Origin: an uncultured Verrucomicrobiae bacterium
Lineage (GTDB): Bacteria; Verrucomicrobiota; Verrucomicrobiia; Limisphaerales; UBA11358
Assembly (NCBI GenBank): GCA_963789055.1
Contig: CAWBJE010000002.1
Coordinates: 304,563-368,562 of the forward strand
Direction of reading: 5' to 3'
DNA length: 64,000 nt
The notes under the pieces were generated by a model. It had not been told where the DNA came from. It was given only the letters and a program-made list of their open reading frames with translations, and did no database searches. Shown one piece after another: positions 2,935 to 39,746 of this stretch (its first letter is position 1; each line of letters starts with the position of its first letter). The position numbers and the translations under genes were made by a program.

Positions 2935-3175
2935 TCATTATGCACCCGCTGGCCAATCTCGCCAAGTTGCTCCATAAACAGGATTTCCGCGACGGCCTGT
3001 GACGCCATTATTTTCATGGGGCTGACCCCGTCATGATATTGGATTCGCTCAAACACCAGTCAGAAGGCATCTCATTGGCACATCGCATTTGACAGTCACC
3101 GAAGCCGCATTATGATGTTTGCGATACACGGAATCGCACCGAGGAAGCCATATAGTTCTGTGATCACACATAAAA

Positions 3176-3406
3176 ATGAACGAAAAAATTGTACAAATTA
3201 TTCCCGCCGATGATTGGTTTGCCGTGTTTAAGATGGATGACGAAGCTGAATTGTCCATGCCTCTGAACTGCTGGGCCCTGTGTCAAGAGGAGGATGGCTC
3301 TTCCAGGATCGAGGGCATCTATGTGGATGCAGCCGGTGATTGCACCGCGGCCAAATCGGCCATCAATTTCGTACGTTACAAAAGACTTTCAACGGTTGTC
3401 ACCTGA
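3176..3406 (+). CDS. Small hypothetical protein (76 aa)
   Basis: ATG ORF in an otherwise empty AT-rich gap with an acidic, non-repetitive translation. No motif recognised. Confidence 0.35.
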   Translation: MNEKIVQIIPADDWFAVFKMDDEAELSMPLNCWALCQEEDGSSRIEGIYVDAAGDCTAAKSAINFVRYKRLSTVVT

Positions 3407-37410: not shown

Positions 37411-37665
37411 TTATTTTTCACGGCGCCAGATGCACTGACCGTCTTTGTACACTTCGCGGACCCGGTGAAAGGGCACGCGATGGAATTGGCCCTTCGCATC
37501 CACCAGCCGGAAGGCGCGCGGATCCTCCGGCGGAAATTCCACGGCTTGAAAAGGAACGAGAATCACCCGCTTTTCTACGCGGTCGAAATAGCCCAGCTCA
37601 AATTGGCCGCGGGCAAAATCGGCGTCCCACCGGATCCGGCTCAGGAGTTCCTGAATGGGTGTCAT
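37411..37665 (-). CDS. DUF504 / MJ1316-type domain protein (84 aa)
   Basis: LLSRIRWD...YFDRVEKRVILVPF...RVPFHRVREVYKDGQCIWRR matches the DUF504 pattern (RI.WD ... IP.HRI ... iW.R). Confidence 0.65.
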   Translation of the reverse strand: MTPIQELLSRIRWDADFARGQFELGYFDRVEKRVILVPFQAVEFPPEDPRAFRLVDAKGQFHRVPFHRVREVYKDGQCIWRREK

Positions 37666-37765
37666 GGTAAATCGTGCCCGCCATCGCGGCGATGCCGGGG
37701 CGATGGATGAGGCCGGTGGGCTTGATTATTTCATCGTGGCAATCATATCGCTGCGGTCGCGGAGT

Positions 37766-38347
37766 TCACGCCTTTTTCTTCGCCTTGGGTTTGTCTTCCG
37801 GCTCGACTTGGAAACCAATCCGTCGCTGCGGCGGCGGTGGCGGCGGTGGTGGCGGGTTGAGAATATCCATGACACGTTGCAGCACCTCGATGATAGCCGC
37901 TTCATGTCCGTCCAGCCGTGCGGTCAGTTTCTTTTCCAGCTCGGCCAGTTGTTTGGCCAGCTCCTTCGTGCTGCCCAGCAGGTCGCGCATCTGGACGAAG
38001 GCGCGCACCACGAACACACTCATCCGCACCGCCTGCGGGCTGTTGAGCACGTTCGCCGCCATGATGGAGCCGTTTTCCGTGAAGGCGTAGGGTAAAGTCC
38101 GCCTTCCGCCACGGCCGACTTTTGACATCGCAAATTGCGATGTCAAAGATTCTTGTTCCTCCCACGTCAGTTGGAATAGAAAATCGTCAGGGAAACGTTC
38201 GCGATTCCGTTTGATGGCTTCATTGAATCGAAACGTTGGCACCCTGAAAATTCGGGCTAAATCCGTGTCCAAAATTACCTTTTGACCACGAATGGTTCGA
38301 ATCATCGAACCAATCTGGTCAACATGTGCCAGCGTTCCGTTGCTCAT
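37766..38347 (-). CDS. ORF6N (KilA-N-related) domain protein with a poly-proline and Lys-rich tail
   Basis: IRGQKVILDTDLARIFRVPTFRFNEAIKRNRERFPDDFLFQLTWEE...LTSQFAMSKVGRGGRRTLPYAFTENG, then a coiled-coil-like region, PPPPPPPPP and a KPKAKKKA end. Confidence 0.8.
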   Translation of the reverse strand: MSNGTLAHVDQIGSMIRTIRGQKVILDTDLARIFRVPTFRFNEAIKRNRERFPDDFLFQLTWEEQESLTSQFAMSKVGRGGRRTLPYAFTENGSIMAANVLNSPQAVRMSVFVVRAFVQMRDLLGSTKELAKQLAELEKKLTARLDGHEAAIIEVLQRVMDILNPPPPPPPPPQRRIGFQVEPEDKPKAKKKA

Positions 38348-38362
38348 AGCATCCCTTTTCCA

Positions 38363-38454
38363 ATGCGGTCACAAATTGTGACCGCATCCGTTTTTGACAT
38401 CGCAAATTGCGATATCAAGTTCTGACCTTGTTCAAGGTCACAATTTGTGACCTT
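38363..38454. promoter_or_regulatory. Three stacked palindromes (candidate operators) directly upstream of the ORF6N gene
   Basis: ATGCGGTCACAAATTGTGACCGCAT (38363-38387, perfect), TTTGACATCGCAAATTGCGATATCAAG (38393-38419) and AAGGTCACAATTTGTGACCTT (38434-38454, perfect). The first begins 16 nt upstream of the ATG at 38347. Confidence 0.5.
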
Positions 38455-38510
38455 AAAAACTTATTTCTTCTTTTGCATCCCGCAGAGCGGGACGCGCTTC
38501 GCGCGCCAGT

Positions 38511-39746
38511 TTATTTTCTCTTTTGGACTTTGGCTGCAACTTTTAAGCGCAATGCGTTGAGCCGGATGAAACCGGTGGCGTCGTCCTGGTTGTAGGTCCC
38601 GCCGTGGCGGGATCGGTCGGCTTCCATCGTGGCGATGTGCGGATTGTACAGGCTCACCGGGGACTGGCGTCCAGCCACCATTATATTTCCCTTATACAAT
38701 TTAACCCGCACGGTGCCGGTCACGTTTTTTTGGCTCTCAGTCACGAACACTTGCAATGCCAGCCGCTCCGGCGAAAACCAATAGCCGTAATACACCAGCT
38801 CCGCGTACCGCGGAATCAGCGAGTCGCGCAGGTGCATGACTTCCCGGTCCATGGTGAGGCTTTCCATCTGCCGATGCGCGAAGTGCAGGATGGCGCCGCC
38901 GGGCGTTTCGTACACGCCCCGCGATTTCATGCCCACGTAGCGGTTCTCCACCATGTCCACGCGCCCGACACCGTGTTTGCCGCCGATTTTATTCAGCGTT
39001 TTCATCACACCGAGCGGGGACAGCTTTTTGCCGTTCACCGCCACGCAATTGCCGCGCACAAAATTAAGCGTGACGAACTCCGGTTTGTTCGGCGCGTCTT
39101 CGGGAAAAACAGACAGCGTGGTGAATGAGCCGCGATACTTTTTGTCGCTGGCATCCATCCACGGGTCTTCGAGAATGCCCGCCTCATAAGAAATGTGCAG
39201 CAGGTTCCGGTCGCTCGAGAACGGTTTTTTCGCGCTGGCCTGGACGGAGATTTTCTTCTTCCGGCAATATTCAATCATCTCCTGCCGGCCGGGAAAGTCG
39301 GCACGAAACGACGGGTCCCGCCACGGGGCGATGACTTGCAATTCCGGCGCGAGCGCGGCGGCGGTGAGCTCGAACCGCACCTGGTCGTTGCCCTTGCCGG
39401 TGGCACCGTGGGCGATGGCATCGGCCTTTTCCCGTTTCGCCACGTCAATCATGCCCTTGGCGATGAGTGGGCGGGCGATGCTGGTGCCGAGGAAATACTG
39501 GTTTTCATAGACCGCGCCGGCCTGGAGCATGGGATAGATGAAGTCGCGCGCGAATTCCTCCTGCAAATCCACGATGTAGATTTTGGATGCGCCGGTTTTT
39601 TTGGCCTTGGCCTCGAGGCCGCGGAGTTCCTCCTCCTGGCCGATGTTGGCGCAGAAGGCAATCATCTCCGCGTCGTAATTTTCCTTGATCCACGACAGCA
39701 ACACCGAGGTGTCGAGGCCGCCCGAATAAGCTAAAACAATTTTCAT
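38511..39746 (-). CDS. argG: Argininosuccinate synthase
   Basis: The start was set at ATG 39746 ([15 protein letters not shown]). Conserved [15 protein letters not shown]; 411 aa. Confidence 0.95.

Follow-up and report, generated by a model that had tools for sequence, protein, structure and literature searches.

What keeps a protein signature conserved: the work of the protein, or the DNA that encodes it? This question is raised by a small gene of the ORF6N family in an uncultured Verrucomicrobiae bacterium (assembly GCA_963789055.1, contig CAWBJE010000002.1), of which a stretch of 64,000 nucleotides (nt), positions 304,563 to 368,562, was analysed and is called the window here. The gene carries a perfect DNA palindrome inside the codons of the family's signature motif, (N)L(K/R)SQ(I/F)(V/A)(T/I)SS, and three further palindromes stand between its start codon and the upstream gene argG. 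Comparison with related loci, viral genes and plasmids shows that the palindrome in the signature codons is maintained at the DNA level and that the peptide follows.

Four palindromes at one gene

All four palindromes (Table 1) are present where a preliminary description of the locus had placed them, one being off by one base. On the coding (minus) strand, 38121-38147 reads ...TTG ACA TCG CAA TTT GCG ATG TCA AAA, which is LTSQFAMSK. The palindrome nearest to the ATG contains a perfect inner part of 12+1+12 (38363-38387), separated from the ATG (38345-38347) by a gap of 15 nt, and the distal one contains a perfect 10+1+10 (38434-38454). One base off the register of the middle palindrome, 38392-38418 is identical to 38120-38146 at 26 of 27 positions; the single-base difference from the intragenic copy, previously assigned to 38393-38419, therefore holds in this shifted register. 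The translations of the upstream copies reported in another frame (MRSQIVTA, LTSQIAIS and RSQFVT) are also correct.

The unit found in the window is an odd palindrome of 27 bp (13+1+13), centred on CAAWTTG with one unpaired A/T in the middle. Two types occur, ATCGCAA (intragenic and middle upstream) and GGTCACAA (the other two upstream). The 15-bp core RTCRCAAWTTGYGAY, at first taken as the unit, is contained in this refined definition and is specific to the locus: with at most one mismatch it matches four times in the 64 kb, always at these sites, where shuffles lead one to expect 0.29 matches, and none of 100 window shuffles gives four. Similarly, eight odd centres in the window have at least 11 of 13 complementary pairs, four of them being these sites, against a shuffle mean of 0.75. 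The DNA palindromes of this ORF6N locus are confirmed as a genuine feature. The upstream ones take up most of the 163 bp spacer between the ORF6N gene and the open reading frame (ORF) at 38511-39746, which we take to be argG from a conserved protein stretch.

Symmetry is kept while the sequence varies

The palindromes were compared across 80 related genomic loci from different species (52-84% protein identity to the window protein, approx. 5.5 kb each), 42 distinct viral genes from IMG/VR contigs and 10 named plasmids. Nearly all of the 80 loci, which belong to the Verrucomicrobiota, carry at the corresponding codons an odd palindrome that is perfect or close to it and in many cases has arms of 13-16 bp. 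Its sequence differs between lineages yet remains Watson-Crick symmetric (examples in Table 1). In a wider set of 89 distinct ORF6N genes, nearly all are palindromic at this position. Over 79 intragenic sites, arm positions 4-13 are paired in 81-97% of cases, nine of these ten positions reaching 89% or more, and each position shows two to four types of pair. From arm position 14 on, the pairing falls off sharply, which sets the unit at 27 bp.

The strongest single result for a constraint on the palindrome is a synonymous one. The third base of the Ser codon follows the residue encoded two codons on: TCG is found with GCG (Ala) in 41 cases and TCA with GTG (Val) in 18, and mixed combinations do not occur. 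In the same manner, TTC, TGC and TAC (Phe, Cys, Tyr) accompany GGA, GGC and GGT (Gly), and TCC accompanies GGG. In 89 distinct 33-mers from ORF6N genes, 87% of the cells are paired compared to 66% in shuffles, and the covariation score is 0.529 as opposed to 0.153 in shuffles, none of 500 of which reach it, and 0.08-0.15 with slid partners. Cells changed on one side only (G-U type) are almost absent from this set.

Since the preliminary description had proposed comparing the motif with codon-shuffled controls, the best palindrome in the motif region was scored in 65 distinct genomic and 22 distinct viral genes against 300 shuffles per gene, in which the protein was kept and synonymous codons were redrawn from the gene's own usage. 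The genomic genes have 12.6 of 13 pairs versus 7.6 in the shuffles (61 of 65 lie above all 300), the viral genes 11.3 versus 7.4 (16 of 22 above all shuffles), and the enrichment looked for is thus present. The accompanying idea that a constraint on the DNA or RNA shapes the peptide is strongly supported at the DNA level, as the arms change together and the symmetry persists where the reading frame differs.

Where selection maintains an RNA helix, G-U intermediates are usually frequent. Among the mismatches found here, G-T is not preferred to A-C on the sense strand (8 versus 25 in intragenic sites; 92 versus 60 in upstream sites, beside 135 other mismatches). Together with the scarcity of one-sided changes, this suggests that the symmetry of the duplex, or both strands, and not the mRNA alone, are under constraint, and the evidence that the constraint acts on DNA and not on RNA is suggestive.

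A useful contrast is provided by argG itself, which contains a near-palindrome, CGCGGGGCGTGTA(T/C)GA(A/G)ACGCCCGGCG, centred at window position 38911 (minus strand) and encoding RGVYETPG. Fourteen related loci have it at the corresponding place in argG; variation is limited to its loop bases, and its arms do not covary. It is a conserved coding palindrome without compensatory changes of the ORF6N type.

Breadth across phyla and reading frames

In 41 of the 42 viral ORF6N genes the intragenic palindrome is present at the same offset from the RFPxDFxF anchor. Including the plasmids (Table 1), it spans Verrucomicrobiota, Bacteroidota, Bacillota, Spirochaetota, Campylobacterota, Pseudomonadota and phages, and the ORF6N gene is the sole element common to all hosts that bear it. 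A representative search returned approx. 24,000 ORF6N clusters at 50% identity. As tblastn against a collection of cultured phages yielded three records only, the breadth was drawn from the IMG/VR contigs and the plasmids.

Departures from the canonical form keep the symmetry in several lineages. In the Treponema saccharophilum plasmid, the change of the core CAA to AAA is compensated on the opposite arm (GAAAaTTTC). Two Opitutia-type loci translate GGTCACAAwTTGTGACC as VVT(N/I)CDH, where the canonical frame would give WSQ(I/F)VTT, and a further frame is used on two plasmids, those of Legionella geestiana and Segatella copri. In the SQN(A/V)IPS subfamily the outer arms have decayed, leaving 8-9 of 13 pairs. 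Since the palindrome occurs across phyla and across frames, it is older than the split into reading-frame variants.

The gene on the Treponema plasmid pTS1 (L165, 665-1561) lies between a DNA methyltransferase with a small winged-helix regulator and a specificity-subunit gene, a slot in which the controller of a restriction-modification operon is expected.

Table 1. Features of the window locus and palindromes of related loci (positions refer to the window).
Feature	Position	Strand	Symmetry or sequence	Remarks
ORF6N-domain gene	37766-38347	minus		193 aa; ORF list, Pfam PF10543 E = 1.6e-27
Intragenic palindrome	38121-38147		TTTGACATCGCAAaTTGCGATGTCAAA; perfect 13+1+13	encodes L68-K76 (LTSQFAMSK)
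ATG-nearest upstream palindrome	38362-38388		class ATGCGGTCRCAA; 12/13 pairs	AAGGGA ribosome-binding-like sequence, then ATG
Middle upstream palindrome	38393-38419		class CTTGATATCGCAA/TTTGACATCGCAA; 11/13 pairs	centre 38406
Distal upstream palindrome	38431-38457		class TTYAAGGTCACAA; 12/13 pairs	
argG (argininosuccinate synthase-like)	38511-39746	minus		directly upstream of the ORF6N gene, co-oriented; ORF list
Array class 1 (of 4, usual order)			CTTGARGT(T/G)CCAAwTTGG...	
Array class 2			TTTAAGGTCACAAwTTGTGACCTTGAA	
Array class 3			CTTGATATCGCAAwTTGCGATRTCAAR	
Array class 4			(T/G)ATGCGGTCRCAAwTTGYGACCGCATC	followed by approx. 14 nt with GGGAA-type ribosome-binding sequence, then ATG
Example intragenic palindrome			AAACTTGAAGTCACAAtTTGTGACTTCAAGTTT	peptide NLKSQFVTSSL
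Example intragenic palindrome			AAACTTGAGGTTCCAAtTTGGAACCTCAAGTTT	peptide NLRFQFGTSSL
Example intragenic palindrome			GTTTGAGGTGCCAAaTTGGCACCTCAAAC	peptide LRCQIGTSN
Example intragenic palindrome			TTCAAGATCACAAaTTGTGATCTTGAA	peptide RSRSQIVILKR
Example intragenic palindrome			GAACCGGTCGCAAaTTGCGACCGGTTC	peptide NRSQIATGS
Example intragenic palindrome			GATGCGGTCGCAAaTTGCGACCGCATC	peptide MRSQIATA
Sulfuricurvum plasmid ORF6N palindrome			11/13 pairs	
Legionella pneumophila plasmid ORF6N palindrome			12/13 pairs	
Bacteroides ovatus plasmid ORF6N palindrome			12/13 pairs	
Butyrivibrio plasmid ORF6N palindrome			11/13 pairs	
Treponema saccharophilum plasmid ORF6N palindrome			CTTGAGGTCGAAAaTTTCGACCTCAAG; perfect	encodes RSKISTSS
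Legionella geestiana and Segatella copri plasmid palindrome			GTCGAAAaTTTCGAC	other frame, VENFD

The upstream array in argG-linked loci

By tblastn with the window ORF, argG lies directly upstream of the ORF6N gene in 50 of the 80 loci. In these argG-linked Verrucomicrobiota, the stretch from argG to the ORF6N start codon is crowded with three to five additional 27-bp palindromes, which fall into a small number of recurring classes. The classes usually stand in the same order across species; the window has the last three of the four, each of which is found again in its own place of the array in most argG-linked loci. The distances between centres cluster around 30-31, 36-38 and 42-49 nt, the central base flips freely between A and T from species to species and, judged by eye, the classes look better conserved than the spacers. 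The sites are dyad-symmetric, specific to their own locus and conserved in orthologues, and the array looks functional. Throughout the 80 loci, sites are almost confined to the region from approx. 300 nt upstream of the start codon to approx. 250 nt inside the gene. Terminator-like matches between 37650 and 38650 of the window are the palindromes themselves, on the antisense strand.

Outside the argG-linked clade upstream sites are occasional and tend to match the gene's own intragenic site. Two viral loci (L089 and L092) have an outside copy that matches the gene's own site, and in Butyrivibrio the upstream copy is perfect, whereas the intragenic one has decayed. Two Legionella plasmids carry a second 27-bp palindrome of this kind just past the 3' end of the ORF6N gene and not upstream of it, approx. 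776 nt after the RFP anchor in L. pneumophila (L168), where it matches the gene's own site, and approx. 767 nt after it in L167.

For every upstream class there is another ORF6N allele whose intragenic palindrome is the same. This supports in a limited sense the earlier suggestion that the upstream copies are short duplicated gene fragments; against it, no obvious ORF6N-like coding sequence was seen beyond the 27-bp unit when a few pairs were compared by eye.

The ORF6N protein

The window protein matches Pfam PF10543 with 96 bits (cut-off 27.8), residues 15-100 falling on profile positions 2-86 of 86, and thousands of homologues with 75-87% identity exist in Verrucomicrobiota. It has the family signature in the form RFPDDFLFQLT...TSQFAMSKVGRGGRRTLPYAFTENG (family ...RFPxDFxFQLT...SQxxxS...GGRRxLPYAFTE(Q/N/H)G; alignments A1 and A2), and the same alignments bear out the SQ(I/F)(V/A)(T/I/M)...GGRR signature which the preliminary description had given. 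The PHROG families matched are annotated as anti-repressor, and three PADLOC models of PDC-S05, a candidate anti-phage defence gene, are matched with E = 2.2e-47, 4.9e-44 and 2.1e-32, in a library without curated cut-off. According to a preprint (10.1101/2024.09.26.614923), one PDC-S05 gene protects E. coli against T7, T5 and T4, although the tested representative had a Virulence_RhuM domain, unlike the window protein, and palindromes were not treated.

The N-terminal ORF6N domain is followed by a predicted helical, possibly coiled-coil, stretch, a poly-proline run and a basic tail, RRIGF...KAKKKA. Distant viral homologues (L162 and L086), with ORF6N domains only approx. 50% identical, have the same C-terminal layout (window 37766-37900) with a tail ...KPRKPIGFK. 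As the helical stretch, the proline run and the basic tail (P)RRRIGF...KKK recur in such distant homologues, the tail is probably functional.

A first full-length AlphaFold model from a shallow alignment was unusable (predicted local distance difference test score, pLDDT, 48). The domain model from a diverse alignment (pLDDT 85) shows a beta-hairpin, two helices resembling a helix-turn-helix, a strand and a helix ending ...ESLTS, after which a Gly/Arg loop of low confidence, QFAMSKVGRGGRR, precedes the PYAF strand. According to this model, the palindrome encodes the end of the helix and the start of a surface loop. The loop varies in length, tolerates a change of frame and takes 12-14-residue duplications, which give rise to another palindrome at a distance of 36 or 42 nt (L019, L024, L035, L050 and L052). 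A strongly conserved "motif" in such a permissive segment fits a cause at the DNA level. A sequence search of solved structures found no relative of the protein, and a fold search gave weak winged-helix matches only, namely Ski/Dachshund (template modelling score approx. 0.5) and MarR; judging from the model, the protein looks DNA-binding.

Two coding palindromes at these distances are also seen in L066, L067, L077 and L080. Pairs of this kind arise from in-frame duplications of the length given above or from swapped loop modules, e.g., SQFATSSSTSNRSQIATGSQKHRDPRF, and in some genes the first of the two has decayed. This suggests inter-allele recombination around the palindrome.

A candidate self-operator and its rivals

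Which factor would recognize these sites? As the ORF6N gene is the only factor shared by all hosts, the simplest trans-acting partner is its own product. We regard the palindromes as candidate operators for this product, acting as a dimer, a reading from sequence comparison that seems to us quite possible, though short of probable. It is the most plausible of the mechanisms considered and takes up the autoregulation option of the preliminary description. The winged-helix-like protein would bind the palindromes, probably dimerising via its C-terminal helical stretch, and its Gly/Arg loop may contact their AT-rich centre; the free flip of the central base is as expected on a dimer axis. A symmetric dimer on the 27-bp operators would exert negative autoregulation, in which the upstream array would throttle transcription arriving from argG or from a local promoter and the intragenic palindrome would serve as a roadblock or looping partner. 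With an operator in its coding sequence, the gene would limit itself wherever it landed, whether on a phage or plasmid or within a restriction-modification operon or defence island. Site and protein, being inseparable, could co-evolve freely, and in this proposal the many palindrome classes exist because the two evolve as one; template-switch correction of quasipalindromes would probably help to keep the arms identical. A further step, which we offer more tentatively, is that the signature peptide is conserved mainly as the translation of its own operator, an ancient palindrome forming a portable self-limiting module in which site and protein co-evolve. That the residue covariation dictated by base pairing and the frame-changed lineages are results of such a translated operator is, likewise, conceivable rather than probable.

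Several observations weigh against a self-operator. The array does not track the downstream ORF6N allele: a gene's own intragenic site matches its own array no better than the arrays of other loci (6.92 versus 6.99 of 10), and within the argG-linked clade similar arrays stand ahead of alleles that differ widely. Either one protein would have to tolerate all classes, or paralogues would have to cross-regulate. The near-identity of the intragenic and one upstream copy, pointed out in the preliminary description, is real in the window, where it reflects the allele type, but is no rule for the clade. Upstream sites are absent from L002, L005, most Opitutia and most viral genes. A scan of 37650-38650 for sigma-70-type promoters gave nothing usable, although promoters of the type used in this phylum fall outside its coverage and transcription may also read through from argG. 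Finally, a dimer that reads conserved bases only does not by itself predict strict symmetry at the variable outer arm positions, a conserved apex with a covarying stem is a hairpin-like pattern, and a footprint of 27 bp is large for one dimer. The excess symmetry of the outer arms could come from arm-to-arm template switching or from a hairpin or cruciform role.

The latter role is the basis of an alternative which we consider unlikely, though by no means negligible, namely that the palindromes act as folded nucleic acid, i.e. as DNA cruciform, single-stranded DNA hairpin or mRNA hairpin. The 13 covarying pairs would then form the stem, with CAAWTTG at its apex, of a pause, roadblock or processing site in an argG-ORF6N transcript, of a single-stranded structure in transfer or replication, or of a hairpin bound by ORF6N. 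The strictly complementary arms around a conserved core agree with this, as even the core change in Treponema is compensated, and so do the sharply bounded arm length in coding and non-coding copies alike, an RNA fold of the region far above shuffles (z = -8.7) and the result of the promoter scan. The array is perhaps part of an intercistronic transcript; in L005 the ORF6N ATG overlaps the argG stop, which makes co-transcription with argG plausible. Against a folded form stand the mismatch types and the near absence of one-sided changes described above, and the conservation of array classes above spacers, judged by eye, fits sequence-specific recognition instead. No Rfam family was found at gathering score, the sole match (MIR5998, E = 0.13, 20 bits versus a cut-off of 180) being chance-like; given this and the lack of G-U tolerance, a structured RNA element was rejected. 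Cruciform extrusion of 13-bp arms is marginal in vivo, and we know of no universal role for a perfect hairpin of 13-16 pairs inside an ORF. Long-range pairing of the middle upstream with the intragenic copy, seen in the RNA fold of the window, was not accepted as a general explanation, since a gene's site matches its own array no better than the arrays of other loci.

The symmetry might also be mainly mutational: near-self-complementary codons would form a quasipalindrome whose arms are converted by template switching during replication, in a permissive loop and with a functionless intragenic site. Quasipalindromes are known hotspots of template switching, by which they are corrected to perfect palindromes (PMC7202029). 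The motif falls on a helix end and a low-confidence loop that tolerates insertions, the 12-14-residue duplications and a change of frame; the mismatch types look random and the palindrome has decayed in the SQN[AV]IPS subfamilies. This explanation is nevertheless improbable, as it accounts neither for upstream copies in non-coding DNA whose classes and, as a rule, order are preserved across species, nor for the sharp 13-bp arm limit in non-coding DNA, nor for the fact that the palindrome stays at a single codon position in six phyla and in two reading frames, nor for the constant use of CAA in a genome of 56% G+C. Least probable is that the palindromes are recombination sites, either cores for a trans-acting site-specific recombinase or hotspots of breakage and template switching, which would mobilise or reshuffle ORF6N cassettes and their halves. 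A layout of 10-bp arms around the 7-bp centre CAAWTTG does resemble the core sites of tyrosine recombinases, and the gene lies in a hotspot that looks like a cassette site, with repeated argG 3' fragments at its borders. ORF6N proteins are, moreover, mosaic (e.g., P0015 versus P0001; L024 combines an L015-like N-terminal half with another loop module bearing a second palindrome), and an integrase adjoins the Legionella oakridgensis gene. However, the central base, which would set the polarity, flips freely within a class, and inversion or deletion between upstream and intragenic copies is found in none of the 80 loci, which makes such a role unlikely. In the 10 Verrucomicrobiota loci with listed ORFs, no recombinase gene was noticed within flanks of approx. 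2.5 kb, and the cassettes are bounded by argG fragments, not by palindromes. A core site for a site-specific recombinase was rejected on the grounds of the flipping centre, the inspected flanks and the unrearranged loci.

Two other identities were discarded. Dispersed palindromes like the repetitive extragenic palindromic sequences and bacterial interspersed mosaic elements (REP/BIME) do not fit, since there are no copies elsewhere in the 64 kb and a handful of single sites in approx. 400 kb of related loci. Repeats like toxI of type III toxin-antitoxin systems (approx. 36 nt, direct) do not fit either, as Tandem Repeats Finder detected none in 38000-38560 and the units here differ from each other and are palindromic.

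Neighbouring genes and the 3' end of argG

In approx. 35 related loci a second, sometimes a third, C-terminal fragment of ArgG (roughly the last 25-50 residues, mostly 369-409) follows just after the ORF6N gene, e.g., at 3083-3199 in L002, at 3114-3239 and 3941-4057 in L010 and at 1201-1314 and 1936-2016 in L031. For this reason, the ORF6N gene looks like a small cassette inserted at the argG 3' end, the end having been duplicated. The window has no downstream fragment; an apparent decayed argG tail lies at 38456-38510, between the argG stop and the palindrome array. Other small cassettes occur between argG 3' fragments (L010 3383-3936, L049 3301-3842, L045 2501-3042, L031 1356-1915). One cassette at the argG end is a module of two genes, the second encoding a ParE toxin (PF05016, E = 3.6e-23), and other neighbours carry DUF6602 or DUF2971. 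The argG 3' end thus resembles a hotspot for cassettes, with cargo of toxin-antitoxin and defence-like type. No integrase was noticed among the ORFs listed for the 10 inspected loci.

A hairpin CCCGC-N4-GCGGG (GATCCCGCCACGGCGGGAC, window 38586-38604, minus strand) lies in frame in the argG 3' region, giving DRSRHGGT where most relatives have DPTKA. It is also seen in argG copies or fragments of L002 (2326 and 3109), L010 (3140), L023 (2218), L028 (2143) and L047 (3122), and a degenerate copy lies at window 38477-38490. As it is a small insertion inside argG copies and not a junction, it was ruled out as a cassette boundary.

Downstream of the ORF6N gene, at 37411-37665 on the minus strand, an MJ1316 "RNA cyclic group end recognition" domain of 84 residues is encoded (PF04457, E = 7e-23). 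tblastn finds this gene only in L001, an identical contig, and in L055, approx. 2.2 kb downstream of the palindrome; from this distribution, it appears not to be linked to ORF6N.

Comparison with known systems and implications

Full-text literature searches found no earlier description of palindromes in ORF6N genes or of such operators in a regulator's own coding sequence. Replication origins lie inside initiator genes in phage lambda, as the iterons of the O gene, and in P2, phiX174 and pT181. In origins of the lambda O type, as here, dyad-symmetric sites of a protein lie within its own coding sequence, in a segment for a flexible linker, and specificities of site and protein co-vary. The ORF6N locus differs in that evidence for replication is lacking, usually one site and not four is in the gene, the site encodes the signature motif and a separate array lies upstream. 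lac O2 in lacZ and gal OI in galE are palindromic operators in coding regions which work together with promoter-proximal ones; they sit in the regulated target gene instead of the regulator's, are not conserved throughout a family and dictate no protein motif. The C proteins of restriction-modification systems are small DNA-binding autoregulators with palindromic operators (C-boxes) beside their own genes on mobile modules, a likeness strengthened by the position of the Treponema gene between methyltransferase and specificity-subunit genes. However, C-boxes are known upstream only and not in the coding sequence, and C proteins have an Xre-type helix-turn-helix. Among the nearest precedents (lambda O iterons, lac O2 and C-protein/C-box pairs), there is none in which a family-defining peptide motif is dictated by the site. 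REP/BIME elements of enterobacteria also form arrays of distinct palindrome classes with short linkers just past the 3' end of genes. In contrast to the ORF6N sites, which occur only with ORF6N genes and of which one is always coding, they are imperfect, extragenic and present in hundreds per genome. Template switching in quasipalindromes copies one arm onto the other and so mimics compensatory change (PMC7202029), but it is a mutational process and not a function, and it leaves the conserved upstream array unexplained.

In this family, protein function alone does not appear to account for the defining motif, which seems to be fixed by a constraint on the DNA. Residue pairs covary through the base pairing of their codons, Ser with Val or Ala and Phe, Cys or Tyr with Gly, which bears on the reading of conserved motifs, of ratios of nonsynonymous to synonymous substitution (dN/dS) and of coevolution signals. 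For the uncharacterised ORF6N family, which is spread over phages, plasmids, restriction-modification operons and defence islands and whose members match the defence candidate PDC-S05, a 27-bp binding site is predicted for each member. If the palindromes are indeed operators of their own gene, a mobile gene can carry its own regulation within its coding sequence; if a hairpin or template switching is responsible instead, the family would be a test bed for the maintenance of palindromes under coding constraint.

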